Source: Shigella phage JK32 | Sequence record: MK962753.1 | Length of the DNA stretch: 64,000 bases | Reading direction: 5' to 3' (one strand) | Shown here: positions 16,813 through 46,870 of the stretch, piece by piece | Numbering within the stretch: the stretch's first letter is position 1 | Layout of the letters: the number at the start of each line of letters is the position of its first letter | Translations under genes and position numbers: made by a program | The notes under the pieces: generated by a model | Told to the model about the DNA's origin: nothing | Database searches by the model: none | The model's input: only the letters and a program-made list of their open reading frames with translations

Positions 16813-17147
16813 TTGTAACCCTCCTCTGAAAGCACATCCCAGATCGTTGCATCAAGGTGCATTAAATTCCACATAATAGAGTCATAACTACCGAAGCCAG
16901 AAGTAAAAATTACATCACACTGGCGATAGGTCTTATGAAAATCGGTGGCTGTATCTGCATCAATAGGCATATCGTCACCGGAAAGCACCAGACATTTAAG
17001 AATCATAACTCTGTTAGCCGTTGGCGCTTGCTTAGTCTTTTCAGCATATTTTTCGATGATCCGTTTTGCCTTTTCTTCTTTGATACGTCCAGACCAAATC
17101 CGGTTTCGGTATTGATTCATAATAATTTCAATCACATCATTTTGCAT
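16809..17147 (-). CDS. Hypothetical protein
   Basis: ORF track. Confidence 0.45.
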   Translation of the reverse strand: MQNDVIEIIMNQYRNRIWSGRIKEEKAKRIIEKYAEKTKQAPTANRVMILKCLVLSGDDMPIDADTATDFHKTYRQCDVIFTSGFGSYDSIMWNLMHLDATIWDVLSEEGYN

Positions 17148-17346
17148 TCTTCACGGTCTCCATAATTGTTTTGTAAGCCAGTTTAAGATGATCACCGAAA
17201 AACTTTGCAGTGTTACCCTTCGGATCGCGGAGCATGGTTTCTACGATCTCATCGGCAGTAACAATTTCTCCTTTCTTTGCTGCATGTCCTACCATATACT
17301 TCAAAGTTTCTTCGGAAGCAAGTGCTGCGGCTACTGGATTAATCAT
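17137..17346 (-). CDS. Hypothetical protein
   Basis: ORF track; ATG after conserved leader. Confidence 0.5.
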   Translation of the reverse strand: MINPVAAALASEETLKYMVGHAAKKGEIVTADEIVETMLRDPKGNTAKFFGDHLKLAYKTIMETVKNAK

Positions 17347-17375
17347 TTTGATTCTCCTTTGTTGTCGATGTGTGC

Positions 17376-17404
17376 ATTATGCTATACCCTATTCCGGTTG
17401 TCAA
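17376..17404 (-). promoter_or_regulatory. Sigma70-type early promoter (TTGACA-17-CATAAT)
   Basis: Reverse strand TTGACA accggaatagggtatag CATAAT. Confidence 0.6.
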
Positions 17405-17416
17405 CACCTAAAAACG

Positions 17417-17444
17417 AAAAAAGCCACCCTTTCGGATGGCTTTT
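17417..17444 (-). terminator. Rho-independent terminator
   Basis: Hairpin agccaccctttcggatggct flanked by A/T runs. Confidence 0.55.
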
Positions 17445-17450
17445 GATTAA

Positions 17451-19589
17451 TTAAGGATTTCGGCCAGGGTAATGCTTAAATCGACCGTAACCAGTTTCAA
17501 TGCTCATATCTCGTTGACGCACAATCGCCCAATAACCGTTGCAGGAATCTTGAAGATATAGATCCTTACCTTTTAGGAACTCATTAAAAATAGTGATCTG
17601 CCAATCATAATAGACCGCATCAGCAAGACTACCCATCCAACCGTGCGGATCTTCCATCAGTTCGACAAGTTCATCAATTACCCAATATGGACAAGGGCTA
17701 AATTTACCCTTACTAAAATCGCTGAACATAGTAACGATCTTGACTTCCGGTCGAGGCTGATCGGGAATATCTGGACGTTTGTTAACTACGACTTGCACAT
17801 ATTTTGTGTAGCCTACAATTTCACCTTCATCTAAGTTAGTGTTATTGTTTTTGTCGGCAAATGCAACAAATTTGTAAACACCAGAATCGTTTAATGTTGC
17901 ATTAGCTTTACGATATACCGGAACACTGGAATCTGCAATAGGTAATTTAATACCACTTTTACTAAATTCATAGGTCGGCACATAGTTAGATGGCGGTTTA
18001 ATCATGGTTGCTTCCAGCACCAACGGATCACCCTCAGTAATTTGCACCGGATGCGGACCGTCAAATTCCATATTAGGAATTACTTCAACTTTATAGGTTG
18101 CACGTCCTGCAATATCATATCCGGTATGCGCACTATGAGGATCTCGGCTAGGGCTATCGCGATATTCATGAGACCAGATACCATTATGTTCTTTATCCGC
18201 CGCATCAGTAATCTTATATTCTTTCGTTTCAATCGGCAATTCTGTTACAAGAACATCGTTTTTCAAAATTGCTAACGAACGAGTTTGAGTCGGGTCATTA
18301 CTTGCTGGCGGTTCTGGATCAACAATTTTAATAACAATAGGTTCCCCAACCTCAATACCGCTATAATCATGCTCGACGTCATAGATATCTAACATACGGC
18401 GATCATAAAATAATGGGCGAGAAGTTGGAGTTCTCTGCGGATCATCATCACGCGCAGGAGCTACCAACAATTGCAGGGCTACACTATTATCATATTGCAA
18501 TTTCTCAAGACTAATACGGTCATAACCAGGATCACCATATTTCTTGCTTTGTAATTGCGTACCACCTAACATCCACGTAAAGTAGACATTATTTGTTAAT
18601 AAACCATAATGTCGGTTCCATGAATTATCAACAGGGGAAACTGGCATATCAATACTAACAGAAGACCCAGAAGGATAACGAAATTCAATAGCAGAAAAAT
18701 CTCGGCTAAAAAATTCGTTTTCCTTGACGTTAACGCGGAATCGATGGCGCTGACCATCCAGATACGATTCACTACTACCAGGACCATTTTCAACCTTATA
18801 GGAACGAATACAAGCGACATAATCACCTGCATCTGCTTCGGTAGCATGTTTCGTCACATATAAAGTTTTATTCTTTGATTCATAAACCAAAGTACCATCG
18901 CCACGTTCCAGACGATAACGAACTATGGTATGTTCAGCGTCATTTGGGGCATCGTCTTCTACAGTATAATAGGCAGGTGCATATTTTTGTACATTGAATA
19001 CAGCTAAATTTTCTCGAATTGTTGCTGTAAACGGATATACAAATTTAACATCACCTGTTTCGTCGCTTAATTCCATTCGATAAAGACCGGAAAATTCAGG
19101 CCATGCGAATTTTGCAATTTTAAATTCACGATGATCCAATCCCAAATCACCATCCACGGAATCAACTAGACCATTATTATAATACAAGTCAACAGAGATA
19201 TTAGCAGGAATATTACTACGAAAAACAATTTTCGCTTTAAGTTCATCACCAATATTAAATGATGTCGGAGGATATACATGTTCAACATATGGATTATCAA
19301 ATAACTTAAATGTAAAGTTTTCCGTGCCAATATCGATAGAATCACCACTAAATGATGTGTCGCCTAGCGCATAACCTCGAACGTTTACAGACCATCCGGT
19401 AACATCGTCTTCTTTAACGGAATCCAATGTAAATGTCGGAGAGGCACTTGTTGCTATAATCTGGTCATTTTTCTTCCAGACATAACCTTTTTTCGGTTTT
19501 GTTGAATCAGGGCTTTCATCAACAATACAGCAGCTAAAATCGTGCGGCATCCAAATCATATTATTGACCGTGGTGTTTACTACTGCCAT
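17451..19589 (-). CDS. Large multi-domain protein with Ig-like repeats and a distinct C-terminal domain
   Basis: 712 aa; Ig-like motifs DAGDYVACI and DSGVYKFVA; no recognisable catalytic motif. Confidence 0.65.
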   Translation of the reverse strand: MAVVNTTVNNMIWMPHDFSCCIVDESPDSTKPKKGYVWKKNDQIIATSASPTFTLDSVKEDDVTGWSVNVRGYALGDTSFSGDSIDIGTENFTFKLFDNPYVEHVYPPTSFNIGDELKAKIVFRSNIPANISVDLYYNNGLVDSVDGDLGLDHREFKIAKFAWPEFSGLYRMELSDETGDVKFVYPFTATIRENLAVFNVQKYAPAYYTVEDDAPNDAEHTIVRYRLERGDGTLVYESKNKTLYVTKHATEADAGDYVACIRSYKVENGPGSSESYLDGQRHRFRVNVKENEFFSRDFSAIEFRYPSGSSVSIDMPVSPVDNSWNRHYGLLTNNVYFTWMLGGTQLQSKKYGDPGYDRISLEKLQYDNSVALQLLVAPARDDDPQRTPTSRPLFYDRRMLDIYDVEHDYSGIEVGEPIVIKIVDPEPPASNDPTQTRSLAILKNDVLVTELPIETKEYKITDAADKEHNGIWSHEYRDSPSRDPHSAHTGYDIAGRATYKVEVIPNMEFDGPHPVQITEGDPLVLEATMIKPPSNYVPTYEFSKSGIKLPIADSSVPVYRKANATLNDSGVYKFVAFADKNNNTNLDEGEIVGYTKYVQVVVNKRPDIPDQPRPEVKIVTMFSDFSKGKFSPCPYWVIDELVELMEDPHGWMGSLADAVYYDWQITIFNEFLKGKDLYLQDSCNGYWAIVRQRDMSIETGYGRFKHYPGRNP

Positions 19590-20953: not shown

Positions 20954-21246
20954 TAATTAATCTCCAAAAATCCAGAAAGACCTAAACCAACATAAACCCA
21001 GATACAAAGGAAAAAGAAGCAAACACCCATAGCAAAGATAAATCCGCGTAGTGTCTTTGGATAACCTACCCAATATTCCCGACCATCTTCTAACCGGATC
21101 AGTCTATTGCCTTGAGAGTCCATATCAATTACAACATGTTTATTTCTGGATTGTAACAGATATTGCTTGACAATCTCAATACCCGCCATAATAACAATAA
21201 CGAAATTAAAAGTCCACATAACAAGGTTAATGATAGTCTCAAGCAT
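20953..21246 (-). CDS. Small membrane protein
   Basis: Two hydrophobic helices. Confidence 0.5.
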   Translation of the reverse strand: MLETIINLVMWTFNFVIVIMAGIEIVKQYLLQSRNKHVVIDMDSQGNRLIRLEDGREYWVGYPKTLRGFIFAMGVCFFFLCIWVYVGLGLSGFLEIN

Positions 21247-21481
21247 TTTCTATCACCTCCACCCAATCAGGCGTTTCCTGAAATACTCCTTCGCCTTCGT
21301 GGTGGATGCATCCTTTATTGCTACAATACATCCACCAATCCCACATTCCCCACGGTAAACGCTGCATATCGTCGTTACAGCAAGTGAAGACAATAGGCCA
21401 ACCACATCTACCACAACGGCAGTTTTCCTTCATGTGAGCGGTATTAGGCTTCTTCATAGATGACTCCAATATAATCGACAT
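21239..21481 (-). CDS. Cys-rich small protein
   Basis: CRCGRCGW and CCNDD cysteine clusters. Confidence 0.45.
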   Translation of the reverse strand: MSIILESSMKKPNTAHMKENCRCGRCGWPIVFTCCNDDMQRLPWGMWDWWMYCSNKGCIHHEGEGVFQETPDWVEVIENA

Positions 21482-21684
21482 TTACATTTAGGGCAATGCG
21501 GTTCTTTAATATAATACCCGTCTGTCTTTGGAACACTAACAGGAGCGGTTTTTATATTGTATTCAGTGAAACAGCGAAAACAAGTTACGTTTTCTACAGA
21601 CTGACGTTTCACCCAATCACCGGAATATAGATCATTTTTATTTGTCATATTCAACCACCACAATATTGATATCTGGAGTAGCAA
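21454..21684 (-). CDS. Zinc-ribbon small protein
   Basis: CFRC ... CPKCKC. Confidence 0.45.
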   Translation of the reverse strand: MLLQISILWWLNMTNKNDLYSGDWVKRQSVENVTCFRCFTEYNIKTAPVSVPKTDGYYIKEPHCPKCKCRLYWSHL

Positions 21685-22093
21685 TATTAATGATCTCTTC
21701 TACACATTCCCACTCAAGGCCACCGATACCGCAACCGATTTTAGGAATATAGAAAGGCTGTATAGCACCTTCAAAAACATCATTGATAGTCTCAAATCCT
21801 TTCAGGATAGCACCATATTCAGCATTTGGACCAGGCCGGAATTGGGTATAGAGATTCACCCCGCACCAGTTATAACCATTAACTTGATGCGTCCAGACAC
21901 TAAACCCACCCAGCTTTTCTACCTTACCGCGAGAAGTTTGCTTGTCAATTTCTAACGCTTGCGGGAACTCTTTCGCGATCTTTGCAGCAATACCAGCGCC
22001 CATAGTATGAAAACAATTACAACCATGAATTAAATGACCGTTTCCTTGTTTAAACAGGGCGATGAGATCGCCCTTTACAGTATCAATAATCAT
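21638..22093 (-). CDS. Macrodomain protein, TARG1/OARD1-like ADP-ribose hydrolase
   Basis: VKGDL...HGCNCFHTMGAGIA...PKIGCGIGGLEWE aligns with recalled OARD1 motifs. Confidence 0.7.
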   Translation of the reverse strand: MIIDTVKGDLIALFKQGNGHLIHGCNCFHTMGAGIAAKIAKEFPQALEIDKQTSRGKVEKLGGFSVWTHQVNGYNWCGVNLYTQFRPGPNAEYGAILKGFETINDVFEGAIQPFYIPKIGCGIGGLEWECVEEIINIATPDINIVVVEYDK

Positions 22094-22108
22094 AATATAA
22101 ACCTCTCA

Positions 22109-22468
22109 TTAGTCACGGGATGACAACCCAGCCATAAAACGGCTTAACAGTGTGTCGCGATAAGCAAAGCACAATTGCTTATCAGGGGCAGTATCACACA
22201 GGTTGCGTTTTGTTTTAGCAAAGCTGGCAATACTAAGATCCCATGCTCGATTTTTTCGTTTTTCGTCTCGACCTTGTTTGTATGCTTCGTCGAGTTCAAG
22301 TGCGATAAAATCGCTACACATGTTATCATTATCACAGAAGGTTTTAATGATCTTTTTGTTGATCTCAAATCCTTTGTATTCGAACTTTGGATAAGGGCGC
22401 TCATTACTAGCAAGCGCACCAGCCGAGAACATCATAGCAATCATAGCAATTATTGTCAACTTTTTCAT
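22109..22468 (-). CDS. Secreted/periplasmic hypothetical protein
   Basis: N-terminal signal peptide MKKLTIIAMIAMMFSAGALA; four Cys. Confidence 0.5.
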   Translation of the reverse strand: MKKLTIIAMIAMMFSAGALASNERPYPKFEYKGFEINKKIIKTFCDNDNMCSDFIALELDEAYKQGRDEKRKNRAWDLSIASFAKTKRNLCDTAPDKQLCFAYRDTLLSRFMAGLSSRD

Positions 22469-22475
22469 ATATTCC

Positions 22476-23066
22476 TCAATAGCGTTTAGTTTTAAGAATG
22501 CCTTTACTCTTTAGATGGTTAGCCTTTTTTAGTACGTCATCAGCATAACCCAATCCGGCTTTATAGTTCCATCCAGCATTGTAAGAAGCTAGCGCGAGTC
22601 GGATATTACCGTTTCGAACATCCAGCCAGTATGCTAACTCATCCATCGCGTAGAATGCAGAAACCTCGCGATTCATGATAAAGTTGATAGTCTGGCGATC
22701 ACTCATTTTAACACCGCGCTTTGCATTTTTCGCTTTCACCGTTTTAAGGTAATTTTGAAATAATCCATAAGCATGATGATTTTTCTTTGGTGCTAAGTTT
22801 GCACCCGCGCTTGATTCTTGCCATGCGATACCCGCCATGATGTGACCTAAACCCTTTCCGTTATAGCGAATATTCGGATGGTCATGTTTCAACTTACCGC
22901 TTTTCTCGAATTGTTCGCCGTATTGATAGGCGAAATGTAAATTATCTAGTTGGTGTGCTGTAAAGTTGTCTATCGGCGCTTTTTTGATCGGTGCGCTAGT
23001 CGATGCGTGTGTAGCACCAACGGCTAGTGACAGACTCAATACTATCGCTTTTAGAACTTTTAACAT
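22476..23066 (-). CDS. Secreted lytic transglycosylase (SLT domain)
   Basis: Signal peptide; SLT motifs AGIAWQESS, YGLFQ, SYNAGW. Confidence 0.75.
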   Translation of the reverse strand: MLKVLKAIVLSLSLAVGATHASTSAPIKKAPIDNFTAHQLDNLHFAYQYGEQFEKSGKLKHDHPNIRYNGKGLGHIMAGIAWQESSAGANLAPKKNHHAYGLFQNYLKTVKAKNAKRGVKMSDRQTINFIMNREVSAFYAMDELAYWLDVRNGNIRLALASYNAGWNYKAGLGYADDVLKKANHLKSKGILKTKRY

Positions 23067-42799: not shown

Positions 42800-45700
42800 T
42801 TAAAGCGCCTAGTGTAACTAGCTTGACAATAGAAAAATTGTCTGCTAATCAGGCGTATATCACATGGGATGACGTAGGCGAAAACTTCTTTTATTTTGTG
42901 GAGTTAGCCGAAACCAGGACACGAGACGGGGAGATCATCCCCGTCGATGAGTTAAGCTGGGTAAACCTGGGATATACTGCCGATCAAAACTGGTTTGAGG
43001 ACAAAAACCTTTTTCCAGAATATTATTACAAGTTTCGTGTAGCAGTAGCCGCAGAAGGATTTGAACAAAGTAAATGGATTGAAACAGAAGAGTTTCAGAC
43101 ATTTAAAACAAACGCATATAATTTTTCTATGATGCGAGAGTTCAACCTTGCAAACGAGTTTATAAAGGAAAAATTTACATACGATAATAGAGAGTATGTA
43201 AAGTTTAATACCGACCTGATTCAAGCATCATTGATGAAGGAAGATTTTGTCTTTAGTCCTGAATATGCAAACATGACAAATATCTCAAACTACATTGTAG
43301 TTGATGAGAACTTTCATGAAATACAGGACCACATAGAAAAAGTCTGTACGGACATAAACCGCACAATGTTAGCGGAAATGAACGGTGTTTTGTACCTTTT
43401 CGAACGGTTCCAGCCGATCGTGAAAGTGTCAAATGATAAAGGTCAATCATGGAAAGCATACAAGGCTTTTAATGATCGTGTAGGCAATCCGGTTTCCCGT
43501 ACATGCGTTTATCAGTCTAAAACCACTACTTACGTTTTAGGATATGACCGAATCTTTTACGGACGACAAGCGAGCGATACTCGATGGAGCGCGGACGATG
43601 TTCGATTTAGTGATGATACGATCACTTTTGCAAAGGTCGGTGACGAAAACGATTTAGGCTTTGACGTTGAGGTCTTTGGTGTATTTTCCAGATTAACAGG
43701 TGATACCACAAAATACGCCGAAGCTATGGCGTGTAGTGATGACTATTTGTGGGTTGGTGCTAAAGATGTTATTCGCCGGATTCGTCTTAAGAATACTCCT
43801 GTTGATACCGTACAGGGTTCGCCTACGTTTGGAGAAAAAATATTCGATCCTGATGTTATCCGAGTAACAGGAAATGATAAAGCTGTCATTCAGAAAATGG
43901 ATGTGATCGACGGTAAATTGCTTGTATTTGTTACGGGTGAAGTTAAACAGCGTTATCAAGATCCAACTAAACCAGAAAACGTTGTTCCGTCAGATGATGC
44001 GGGTGTATACTTAATAGGGAGTGATGGTCTGTCTTTTCAGAGAGTATTTGGCAACACTCCGCAGGAAAGGGAATATATTCAGCATGGGTTCAGTAATATG
44101 TCAACCAATGGTGATGAGGTGTTCATAAGCCATTATAATCATCACTTCGAAAGCATTTTACCTGATCCAGAAACTGCCGAGAAATATGAATTGGGCGAAG
44201 CTGTAAAATATTCTCAGGAGCCAACTTATCTAACTGATAAGAAAATACATCAAACTACTTTCAGAGCAAGTTATGATGATTTGCGTATTTGGGAGTTAGG
44301 ACCGCAAGCGTATTATAACGAGGCTGATTATACATGGATGCGTCGAAACGGTGTCCGTGTGTGGATCACAAATGATAATCGCCCGTTGGTTGTTTATCCA
44401 GAGGTTATCTATACTCAAGAAGTTGATACGTCTGGCATTCTTGACCAAAATAGGGTCAACCGAGAAGTTTATGATAAAGGGACCGTGACCTGTTATCTTA
44501 ACAATGTTAAATTTGAAGGATTCAAACAATATGCATCCGGTGTAATGTTCCATAAAAACACGGGAGAGATCATAGGATTCTATCAATTTAATTATCGTGT
44601 TCGTGATCAGGTTGGTGTATATTGGAAACCTACAAATGTAGCATTTGTTGCCGAATTGCAAAATCAGGTTCGAGAGGTTCCCTGGGTTCCGGTTCACTAC
44701 GATCGAGAGCAAGATCCAGATTTGCGACCTTTACTGAATAAGATGACACCGGATAGCTTTTTACTTGAGAACGAAAATTTCAGAAAATTCTCTGAATATT
44801 ATCTGCAATTCTTAAGTGATGGTTCAGGAACATATTATAATAAACTAAAAAATCTGATTAAAAACAAATATCCACGCGAGCAAGATGCATATGAGTATCT
44901 TTGGTCAGAGATGAACAAACGAAACATCTATGCAGATAAAAACAAGCGAGATGCGGTAGTAAGATTCTTTGAATCCCGCAAATCAGATTTTTATTCCACT
45001 AAGGGCGTGGAGGCTTCTTATAAGTTCTTGTTTAAGTTACTTTATAATGAAGATGTGGAAATTGAGGTTGAATCACAAGCCGGACTAGAGTATGATATTG
45101 TTGTTAGTTCAACGAACATTGACGAGGATATCGTAGGTCGCACGATTTATACTCCAACCGGACGGGCTAACGTGACGTATCTTGAAAGGGAATATGAAGG
45201 TGGTCGCCTACGCTGGCGAGTAACCATTCATAACCTGATCGGGCGGTTCGAAGAAGGTCAAGTGATCAAATCAGAGAAAACAGCGTTTGAAGGGATGATC
45301 CTTGTTGGTGTACGTGGTAAAGAGTTGTTGAGTAGTTCAATCGACTATATCAACCGCTCACGAAGCCAATACACCATGAAGATTAAAAGTGCATTGCCAG
45401 TTTCGCGCTATGCAAATGATGTAATGCGATTTGTTCATCCTGTCGGCTTTGGGTTTATCGGTGTTACCCTGCTTACGATGTTCATTAACAGCGGGTTAAG
45501 CATGAAACACACAGAGACGATAATTCAATCTCTGAAAAATTATAAGTTTGACAGCGGATTGCCTAGCGTGTATCCTGATCGGGTGGCAGACCTTGACGTT
45601 GACGGAAACATTAAGAAAGACCCGCTTACCGGAAAAGCATTATATTTGACTTCACCTTTAATTGGTGATGAATTTCCGGTTCCTCCTGAATATGATCAGG

Positions 45701-45882
45701 AGAACAGCGAATTGTTCCACGGACTTAAAGCAAGCGAACGAAGATTTGCAATGAGTCCACTGTTTGACCAGTCGGCGGTAACATTCTCTATGTTCCGTGA
45801 ACTTGTAGATAAACGGTTGAAGGATAATATAGGGAATCCACGCGATCCGAAGAATCCTACACAGAGGAAAATTAATGGCTAA
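42796..45882 (+). CDS. 7: Baseplate wedge protein gp7
   Basis: 1028 aa vs T4 gp7 1032 aa; synteny. Confidence 0.85.
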   Translation: MIKAPSVTSLTIEKLSANQAYITWDDVGENFFYFVELAETRTRDGEIIPVDELSWVNLGYTADQNWFEDKNLFPEYYYKFRVAVAAEGFEQSKWIETEEFQTFKTNAYNFSMMREFNLANEFIKEKFTYDNREYVKFNTDLIQASLMKEDFVFSPEYANMTNISNYIVVDENFHEIQDHIEKVCTDINRTMLAEMNGVLYLFERFQPIVKVSNDKGQSWKAYKAFNDRVGNPVSRTCVYQSKTTTYVLGYDRIFYGRQASDTRWSADDVRFSDDTITFAKVGDENDLGFDVEVFGVFSRLTGDTTKYAEAMACSDDYLWVGAKDVIRRIRLKNTPVDTVQGSPTFGEKIFDPDVIRVTGNDKAVIQKMDVIDGKLLVFVTGEVKQRYQDPTKPENVVPSDDAGVYLIGSDGLSFQRVFGNTPQEREYIQHGFSNMSTNGDEVFISHYNHHFESILPDPETAEKYELGEAVKYSQEPTYLTDKKIHQTTFRASYDDLRIWELGPQAYYNEADYTWMRRNGVRVWITNDNRPLVVYPEVIYTQEVDTSGILDQNRVNREVYDKGTVTCYLNNVKFEGFKQYASGVMFHKNTGEIIGFYQFNYRVRDQVGVYWKPTNVAFVAELQNQVREVPWVPVHYDREQDPDLRPLLNKMTPDSFLLENENFRKFSEYYLQFLSDGSGTYYNKLKNLIKNKYPREQDAYEYLWSEMNKRNIYADKNKRDAVVRFFESRKSDFYSTKGVEASYKFLFKLLYNEDVEIEVESQAGLEYDIVVSSTNIDEDIVGRTIYTPTGRANVTYLEREYEGGRLRWRVTIHNLIGRFEEGQVIKSEKTAFEGMILVGVRGKELLSSSIDYINRSRSQYTMKIKSALPVSRYANDVMRFVHPVGFGFIGVTLLTMFINSGLSMKHTETIIQSLKNYKFDSGLPSVYPDRVADLDVDGNIKKDPLTGKALYLTSPLIGDEFPVPPEYDQENSELFHGLKASERRFAMSPLFDQSAVTFSMFRELVDKRLKDNIGNPRDPKNPTQRKING

Positions 45883-46870
45883 TGAAAATAGTGTGATCTA
45901 TCGCTCAATCATTACTAGTAAATTCAGAACGGAAAAACTTCTGAATTTCTATAATTCTGTAGGCGATGGGGCAAATCAAATTACAATTTATGGAACGTTT
46001 GGACGTTCGGAGCCGTGGTCAGAAAACGAAAAAGAGGTGGGCTTTGCCCCACCTTATCCGACCGATTCAACGGCTGGCGTTGTTGATATGTGGACCCATA
46101 TGATGGGGGCGGTTAAGATTAATAAATCACTTCTTGATGCGGTTATCCCCCGTAAAGATTGGGGTGATACCGGACAGGATAACCCGCGCACATTCTTTAT
46201 CAATGACATTGTTGTTGTAAACTCAGCACCATATAACAGAACTGATGTTGGTAGTGGTTGGATGGTGTATCGAGTGACAGATGTTCCCGATCGCGGTTAT
46301 TGTTCTATTTCAAGCATTGACGCTAAAGTAGAGTGTTTGAAATTGGGTGGAAAATGGACACCTACGCATGAATCAATCGCGCCACCAGTAGGGAAAGGCG
46401 ATTCTATTGATATGGGTGACGGATATCGTTGGGAATATTTGTACACAATTCCGCCTGATGCGGCGATCAACCGTTGCACCAACGAGCATATTGTTGTGCC
46501 GTTCCCTGATGAACTGCGACAAGATCCGGCGCGTTGGGGCTATGACAATGTGATCACCTGGTATAATGACTATAATCTGCTTTATCGGCTGAAAGTAGTA
46601 ACTTTGCGTTTTCAGGCTTATATGGATTCCGCACAATTCCCAACGTCAGCGTTAGTGGGTAATACTGGCTTCCGTCAGTTAAGCATTATCCTTAACCCAT
46701 TGGAAAAGAAAGCACGCCCTAGCGATCCAGACGTTAAAGCGGTTAAAGATAAGTACCGTCCGCAAGACTTAGAGCCGCACTCAGGCGAAATGATCTACAT
46801 GGAAAACCGACAACCTATCGTTCGGTCATTAGATCAAACAGAACTTGTTTCTGTATTGTTTGAGTTCTAA
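45875..46870 (+). CDS. 8: Baseplate wedge protein gp8
   Basis: 331 aa vs T4 gp8 334 aa; synteny. Confidence 0.85.
   Translation: MANENSVIYRSIITSKFRTEKLLNFYNSVGDGANQITIYGTFGRSEPWSENEKEVGFAPPYPTDSTAGVVDMWTHMMGAVKINKSLLDAVIPRKDWGDTGQDNPRTFFINDIVVVNSAPYNRTDVGSGWMVYRVTDVPDRGYCSISSIDAKVECLKLGGKWTPTHESIAPPVGKGDSIDMGDGYRWEYLYTIPPDAAINRCTNEHIVVPFPDELRQDPARWGYDNVITWYNDYNLLYRLKVVTLRFQAYMDSAQFPTSALVGNTGFRQLSIILNPLEKKARPSDPDVKAVKDKYRPQDLEPHSGEMIYMENRQPIVRSLDQTELVSVLFEF

Follow-up and report, generated by a model that had tools for sequence, protein, structure and literature searches.

The gene at positions 21638..22093 on the minus strand of the Shigella phage JK32 sequence analysed here (the window, 64,000 nucleotides of GenBank accession MK962753.1) is, as judged by homology and gene order, the Krischvirus orthologue of T4 tk.4/adfM. 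Its product is an orphan ALC1/TARG1-like macrodomain in which a glutamine occupies the position of the catalytic lysine of TARG1 and DarG. At a probability of about three in four, we read this protein as an AdfM-like anti-DarT2 macrodomain that would remove thymidine-linked ADP-ribose by Gln-type hydrolysis. Fold, class, ligand-binding loops, active-site residues, orthology and synteny come from the present analysis; the activity and the phenotype of the JK32 protein are what we infer. DarTG systems stop phages by ADP-ribosylating DNA, and the erasers carried by phages decide which of them grow on DarTG strains. Such genes are relevant to the choice of therapeutic E. coli phages, among whose candidates are Krischvirus isolates.

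Orthology with T4 tk.4 and gene context

The 2 kb surrounding the gene are 97-98% identical to the corresponding DNA of 57 Krischvirus (RB49-like) genomes of E. coli phages: the window is Krischvirus DNA and the gene is RB49 tk.4. Its protein shows 98-100% identity to Krischvirus proteins labelled tk.4 or macro domain protein, and the homologue of phage FL04 is 100% identical. In RB49 the gene is labelled tk.4, with the product 'phosphatase; A1pp motif', and in phage W115 'macro domain protein'. The coding sequence differs from that of RB49 by 10 synonymous and 2 non-synonymous codons, which indicates purifying selection on tk.4. The open reading frame is intact and begins with ATG. The features discussed below are the following.

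21638..22093 (-): tk.4/adfM orthologue, coding sequence including the stop codon, 151-aa single-domain macrodomain (open reading frame, Pfam Macro and homology)
22102..22107 (-): Shine-Dalgarno sequence GAGAGG, 8 nt 5' of the tk.4 ATG (read from the sequence)
22064..22072 (-): codons of G8-D9-L10, aligned with 'GDL' of TARG1 (VKGDL)
22016..22018 (-): codon of N26, equivalent to DarG N22, SCO6735 N27 and phiKZ AdfM N23 (alignment and published mutants)
21986..22003 (-): M31-A36 (MGAGIA), phosphate-binding loop 1, identical to MGAGIA of TARG1 (alignments)
21842..21844 (-): codon of Q84 (CAA), at the catalytic Lys position of TARG1 K84 and DarG K80, equivalent to SCO6735 Gln85 (HMMER and MAFFT)
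21719..21745 (-): P117-G125 (PKIGCGIGG), phosphate-binding loop 2, with G122 equivalent to SCO6735 G128 and G124 opposite TARG1 D125 (alignments)
22431..22459 (-): candidate sigma-70-type promoter TTGACA-17-TATGAT inside the 5' end of vs (consensus match only)
21454..21648 (-): 64-aa Cys-rich open reading frame downstream of tk.4, its ATG overlapping the tk.4 stop by 11 nt

The gene lies in an early-type minus-strand block, flanked on one side by the run of small open reading frames that follows tk and on the other by vs, vs.1 and regB; all have the same orientation. Beside tk.4, where vs, vs.1, regB, tk and small open reading frames are the neighbours, darT is absent. Among the matches listed, tk.4 is single-copy in each phage genome. 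T4 Tk.4 (NC_000866 60922-61389) and the JK32 protein can be aligned from end to end, with 44% identity (E 9e-45). T4 and RB49-type phages have the gene order tk–small ORFs–tk.4–vs–vs.1–regB in common, the proteins are of similar length (155 aa in T4, 151 aa in Krischvirus), and both carry the Gln-type NLYTQF motif together with the MGAG and PxIGxGIG loops. The two differ in 56% of their residues, and the small open reading frames between tk and tk.4 also differ. Full-length homology, presence in one copy and the retained position between tk and vs place the JK32 protein with AdfM of T4.

What is known of the T4 gene is recent. On a host carrying DarTG2, tk.4 was the sole significant hit of a transposon screen (HIDEN-SEQ), and a clean knock-out was sensitised to DarTG2, upon which the gene was renamed adfM, for anti-DarT factor Macrodomain (bioRxiv 10.1101/2025.11.20.689424). 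The evidence in that preprint is genetic, and hydrolysis by T4 AdfM is deduced there. The A1pp/macro domain in tk.4 orthologues had been reported already in 2006 (PMC1524935). Beyond the HIDEN-SEQ preprint and this comparative-genomics note, our search found no literature on tk.4 biochemistry, and it found no paper on Krischvirus and DarTG. The likely function is thus already published and the gene already annotated in public records, so that the finding is not new; the practical gain is the annotation 'AdfM-like anti-DarT2 macrodomain' in place of 'phosphatase' or 'hypothetical protein'.

The signals for expression of tk.4 were also read. Its Shine-Dalgarno sequence directly follows the vs stop codon (22109-22111). 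The promoter-like site at 22431..22459 matches 11 of 12 consensus positions, has an upstream TG and falls within the initial 40 nt of the vs reading frame; transcription from it would yield an RNA that lacks the vs start and has tk.4 as its first gene, and the site could in this way drive tk.4 and the genes downstream. Since the number of promoter-like sites in the region (22, against a shuffled expectation of 16.5 +/- 4.3) is not clearly higher than expected, we keep it as a mere candidate. The 11-nt overlap makes translational coupling of the 64-aa open reading frame with tk.4 possible. We count this frame as a neighbour of tk.4, by which no functional link is implied.

The protein belongs to the ALC1/TARG1-like macrodomains

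The initial annotation had placed a macrodomain at 21638-22093, and this assignment holds. The Pfam Macro model (PF01661) scores 28.7 bits against a gathering threshold of 22, with residues 22-135 covering model positions 1-118 of 118, and PHROG 335 is matched with an E value of 1e-61. Solved macrodomains are also matched by sequence, namely M. tuberculosis DarG, Bacteroides BT1257, Streptomyces SCO6735 and human TARG1 (E 5e-8 to 4e-6), and the three motifs cited in the initial annotation are found at residues 6-10, 23-36 and 117-129. An AlphaFold2 model computed from an 80-sequence alignment reached pLDDT 97.4 and pTM 0.91. The protein has the three-layer alpha/beta/alpha architecture of macrodomains, built around a central mixed beta-sheet. 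In a Foldseek search TARG1 ranked top (E 2e-11, TM 0.78-0.85), followed by Poa1p, both DarG macrodomains, BT1257 and SCO6735, and comparison of the family profile with PDB sequences gave the same grouping. The nearest neighbours in sequence and structure are thus TARG1, DarG, SCO6735 and Poa1p, and not MacroD, PARG or the viral X-domains. Because the Foldseek ranking and the profile grouping agree, membership of the ALC1/TARG1-like class is secure.

The ADP-ribose-binding loops (GD[IL], G-x-G-[IV]-A and P-x-[IL]-G-x-G) are all present, as G8-D9-L10, MGAGIA at residues 31-36 and PKIGCG at residues 117-122. They are near-invariant in the tk.4 family and align with the loops of TARG1, DarG and SCO6735. 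The Asp position of the GDL motif, presumably the residue that contacts adenine, is D or N in 250 of 256 relatives. Human TARG1/OARD1 (PDB 4J5R/4J5S) has the same fold at 28% identity and shares the VKGDL, MGAGIA and P[KR]IGCG motifs with the JK32 protein in nearly identical form.

In PADLOC and NCBIfam, the sole matches are DarG models, hit over their macrodomain part only (positions 2-141 of 329-338). We nevertheless rejected the protein as a DarG equivalog: the DarG2 equivalog model NF048014 scores 48.4 bits against a cut-off of 250 and is matched at positions 2-141 of 338, which leaves its C-terminal half unmatched, and darT is not a neighbour. Compared with the DarG2 macrodomains of M. 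tuberculosis (5M3I), T. aquaticus (5M31/5M3E) and Thermosipho (7OMU), the JK32 protein thus lacks the C-terminal half and an adjacent darT, and it further differs in carrying Q84 for K80 and no Trp for W83. It corresponds to the N-terminal half, the hydrolase, of the DarG2 antitoxin, and is an orphan, because no darT is nearby. For the Pelagimonas homologue (P0099, 44% identity) we also looked for a DarT neighbour and found none, which makes it an orphan bacterial copy.

A glutamine at the catalytic lysine position

The active site departs from that of TARG1. In HMMER pairwise and profile alignments, 'LITKKRA' of TARG1 stands opposite 'LYTQFRP', so that K84 is replaced by Q84; 'FPTKKHW' of DarG is aligned with the same segment, K80 falling on Q84, and MAFFT pairs both lysines with Q84 as well. 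'GCGLDR' of TARG1 lies opposite 'GCGIGG', which puts G124 in place of D125. In TARG1, K84 forms a lysyl-ADP-ribose intermediate that D125 resolves, and K80 is the catalytic residue of DarG (PMC9967889). With the K84/D125 dyad absent, the lysyl-ADP-ribose mechanism of TARG1 cannot operate, and we reject TARG1-type catalysis for the JK32 protein. The TARG1-type pattern proposed in the initial annotation therefore stands as regards class and motifs and falls as regards catalysis: that annotation had named catalytic residues missing from the alignment as its own ground for refutation, and by it the TARG1-type mechanism is formally refuted, the residues being those of the SCO6735 Gln type.

Indeed, SCO6735 and BT1257 also have Gln at the catalytic Lys position ('NMIGQHG'), and H23, N26, Q84 and G122 of the JK32 protein align with H24, N27, Q85 and G128 of SCO6735. 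The combination that characterises the Gln type, Gln at the Lys position with the conserved Asn, the loop Gly and the His before the Asn, is therefore complete. An MAFFT alignment of seven references wrongly placed 'NMIGQHG' of SCO6735 and BT1257 as an insertion; the HMMER pairwise and profile alignments were preferred, in which the numbering of H24, N27, K34, Q85, K89 and G128 agrees with the SCO6735 paper (PMC9411070). There, the Q85A substitution abolished activity on dT-ADPr DNA and on protein substrates, N27S nearly abolished activity with loss of dT-ADPr hydrolysis, G128E lowered it, and a water-mediated mechanism was proposed. Mutants show that the Asn equivalent to N26 is needed for the activity of DarG, SCO6735 and phiKZ AdfM alike (PMC9411070, PMC13309987). 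Conservation follows the same residues: across the 256 relatives N26 is present in every one, N80 is invariant and Q84 occurs in 252, while 234 have Phe or Tyr at position 85, and at position 124 there is always Gly or Ala and never Asp.

The likeness to SCO6735 has its limits. SCO6735 of Streptomyces coelicolor (5E3B) and BT1257 of Bacteroides (2FG1/2AFC) are cellular Gln-type members of the ALC1/TARG1-like class, whereas the JK32 protein is of phage origin and about 23-24% identical to them. Lys34 and Lys89 of SCO6735, the latter in an extended central loop, help to position the DNA (PMC9411070). Neither has a counterpart here: A33 stands opposite Lys34, and a 5-residue gap lies opposite GMKTG, the Lys89 loop, in keeping with the absence of the 5-6-residue central-loop insertion shared by SCO6735 and BT1257. 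The Trp83 of DarG, which stacks on thymine (PMC9967889), is likewise missing, its position being P87 in the pairwise alignment; the only conserved aromatic residue nearby is the F/Y at position 85. On these residues, the JK32 protein would be labelled a Gln-type (SCO6735-like) member of the TARG1/DarG class, and catalysis of the SCO6735 type appears more likely than the lysine mechanism of TARG1 and DarG.

Other phage proteins were considered as precedents. AdfM of the chimalliviruses (phiKZ gp104; Cell Rep 2026, PMC13309987) removes T-ADPr from DNA in vitro and protects against DarTG2; its expression is reported to be late and the protein is imported into the phage nucleus. It is, like the JK32 protein, an orphan phage macrodomain of this class. 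However, we rejected it as the closest phage precedent, since it is only 26% identical (E 1e-6) and of the Lys type, with a DarG-like FPTKDNW motif, and hence represents a different branch. The AdfM proteins of phiKZ and of T4-type phages, named independently, are thus separate branches of the class under one name. In mechanism, the Gln at the catalytic position ties the T4-type branch to SCO6735 and not to DarG, TARG1 or phiKZ AdfM. That the T4-type branch has Gln and not Lys is not spelled out in the papers that we consulted; we regard it as a modest, testable refinement and not as a discovery. AdfB of ICP1 was also rejected as a macrodomain precedent, the available part of its source describing direct interaction with DarT and giving no macrodomain assignment.

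Proposed function and alternative readings

We propose the following scenario. The protein would be made from the early-type minus-strand gene block and would bind, through its GDL, MGAGIA and PKIGCG loops, the ADP-ribose that host DarT2 has put on thymidines of single-stranded phage DNA. Gln84, held by Asn26, would position the distal ribose while water does the chemistry, as proposed for SCO6735 and not as with the Lys of TARG1 and DarG. Hydrolysis of the thymine-ribose bond would make the DNA replicable again, and the phage would thereby escape the abortive defence of DarTG2. SCO6735 itself cleaves dT-ADPr in vitro (PMC9411070). The reversal of DarTG-type host defence ADP-ribosylation, which the initial annotation had suggested, matches the genetic report for T4 Tk.4/AdfM against DarTG2. 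What counts against an anti-DarT2 hydrolase is the identity of only 44% to T4 Tk.4, the absence of the Lys that is catalytic in DarG, TARG1 and phiKZ AdfM, and the missing counterparts of SCO6735 Lys34 and Lys89 and of DarG Trp83.

Domain fusions fit a role on nucleic acids. Among the closest relatives of tk.4 are longer proteins in which a Gln-type macrodomain is joined to NADAR (P0199, P0204) or to DUF4326 (P0204, P0168). NADAR is the guanine-ADPr DNA hydrolase domain of DarG1 and AdfN, and the joining of a Tk.4-like and a NADAR domain in one chain, hence of thymidine- and guanine-type modules, is in line with a nucleic-acid eraser. According to annotation, the RB49 lineage also encodes modB, alt, a second Alt-like ADP-ribosyltransferase (ART) and 30.3, the homologue of T4 adfN/NADAR, all at loci outside the window (L005 8917-9420; L006 1490-4443 and 15610-16089). 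In T4, 30.3/AdfN counters DarTG1 and not DarTG2 (PMC11825919). The lineage may accordingly hold both guanine- and thymidine-type erasers of DNA ADP-ribosylation, as layered anti-DarT genes.

The absence from this branch of the catalytic Lys, of DarG Trp83 and of SCO6735 Lys34 and Lys89 makes an undescribed mechanism conceivable. The T4/RB49-type AdfM proteins could then form a separate Gln-type branch (N-x-Y-T-Q-[FY]) that works in such a way, or that erases a broad spectrum of marks beyond those of DarT2, on other bases, RNA or proteins; we consider this unlikely, but if a broad eraser were the truth, the NADAR and DUF4326 fusions would be multi-specificity 'eraser cassettes'. Somewhat less probable still is a general enzyme acting on ADP-ribose derivatives or de-MARylating proteins (Asp/Glu-ADPr, O-acetyl-ADP-ribose, ADP-ribose-1''-phosphate), with its main role in metabolism or against a protein- or RNA-targeting toxin. 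The GenBank label 'phosphatase, A1pp' agrees with such an enzyme, yet it derives from a historic domain name and not from an assay (PMC1524935), and the sole known phenotype of an orthologue, that of T4, is specific to DarTG2. [quoted passage not shown] Generic ADPr-hydrolase activity is possible as a side activity of the JK32 protein.

Protection need not be enzymatic, since SCO6735 Q85A, DarG K80A and TARG1 K84A, though catalytically dead, bind DarT and so inhibit it in vitro (PMC9411070). The JK32 protein might thus mimic an antitoxin, binding DarT2 or shielding ADP-ribosylated DNA while leaving the mark in place. The Lys that serves catalysis in DarG and TARG1 is absent from it, and the phage anti-DarT factors AdfA and AdfB work by direct interaction. 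Nevertheless, the residues on which hydrolysis by SCO6735 and DarG depends are near-invariant (both phosphate-binding loops, and N26 and Q84 as counted in the 256 relatives) in a family that exceeds 18,000 cluster representatives from diverse hosts, which argues for an enzyme whose substrate is a universal chemical mark and not for a binder of one toxin. The C-terminal half of DarG is missing as well, and we regard a non-catalytic mimic as quite improbable. Least credible is that the protein erases or tunes the phage's own ADP-ribosylation, that is, the marks put on host proteins by Alt, ModB or an Alt-like ART, as the initial annotation had offered as an alternative. Writer/eraser pairs are common in ADP-ribosylation systems and the RB49 lineage, as annotated, has the writers modB, alt and the second Alt-like ART, but tk.4 adjoins no ART gene. 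In T4, ModB links ADP-ribose to Arg as an N-glycoside that withstands NH2OH and is taken off by ARH1, an enzyme of the ARH fold (PMC10468400). The substrates reported for the class of TARG1, DarG and SCO6735 do not include Arg; they are Asp/Glu esters, thymidine and phosphate ends (PMC9967889, PMC9411070). Moreover, read counts of T4 tk.4 were lowered specifically with DarTG2 (bioRxiv 10.1101/2025.11.20.689424). An AdfM-like eraser of the DarT2 mark hence remains the reading that we prefer.

Distribution of tk.4 and neighbouring genes

Homologues of tk.4 were found in 2,784 of 50,697 phage records, and a search with the tk.4-family profile retrieved 18,113 cluster representatives at E ≤ 1e-3, from very different hosts. 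The closest relatives outside Krischvirus are the macro proteins of the Vequintavirus phages JLBYU08, FFH2 and Bas59 (67-68% identity), whose genes lie in another context, downstream of SSB genes. The syntenic T4 orthologue, at 44%, is far more distant than these, which suggests that tk.4 has passed laterally between phage lineages of E. coli.

Directly 3' of tk.4 are two small Cys-rich open reading frames on the minus strand, of 64 aa (21454-21648) and 72 aa (21239-21457), which sit where T4 has tk.1-tk.3; the 64-aa product has paired CxxC motifs and resembles a zinc ribbon. On the other side, vs (valyl-tRNA synthetase modifier; 22109-22468, minus strand) encodes a signal-peptide-like N-terminus. 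In the HIDEN-SEQ screen, depletion in minimal medium was strongest for its T4 counterpart (bioRxiv 10.1101/2025.11.20.689424). The vs.1 homologue (22476-23066, minus strand) carries the label of a lytic transglycosylase (SLT) domain protein, and its product begins with a hydrophobic leader; it lies in the early-type block, distant from the lysis genes. In the same minus-strand block, near rI and tk, the gene at about 16965-17741 (RB49 45367-46143) has a gp38-like tail-fibre adhesin as its annotated product; the long tail-fibre genes are far away (RB49 145-155 kb).
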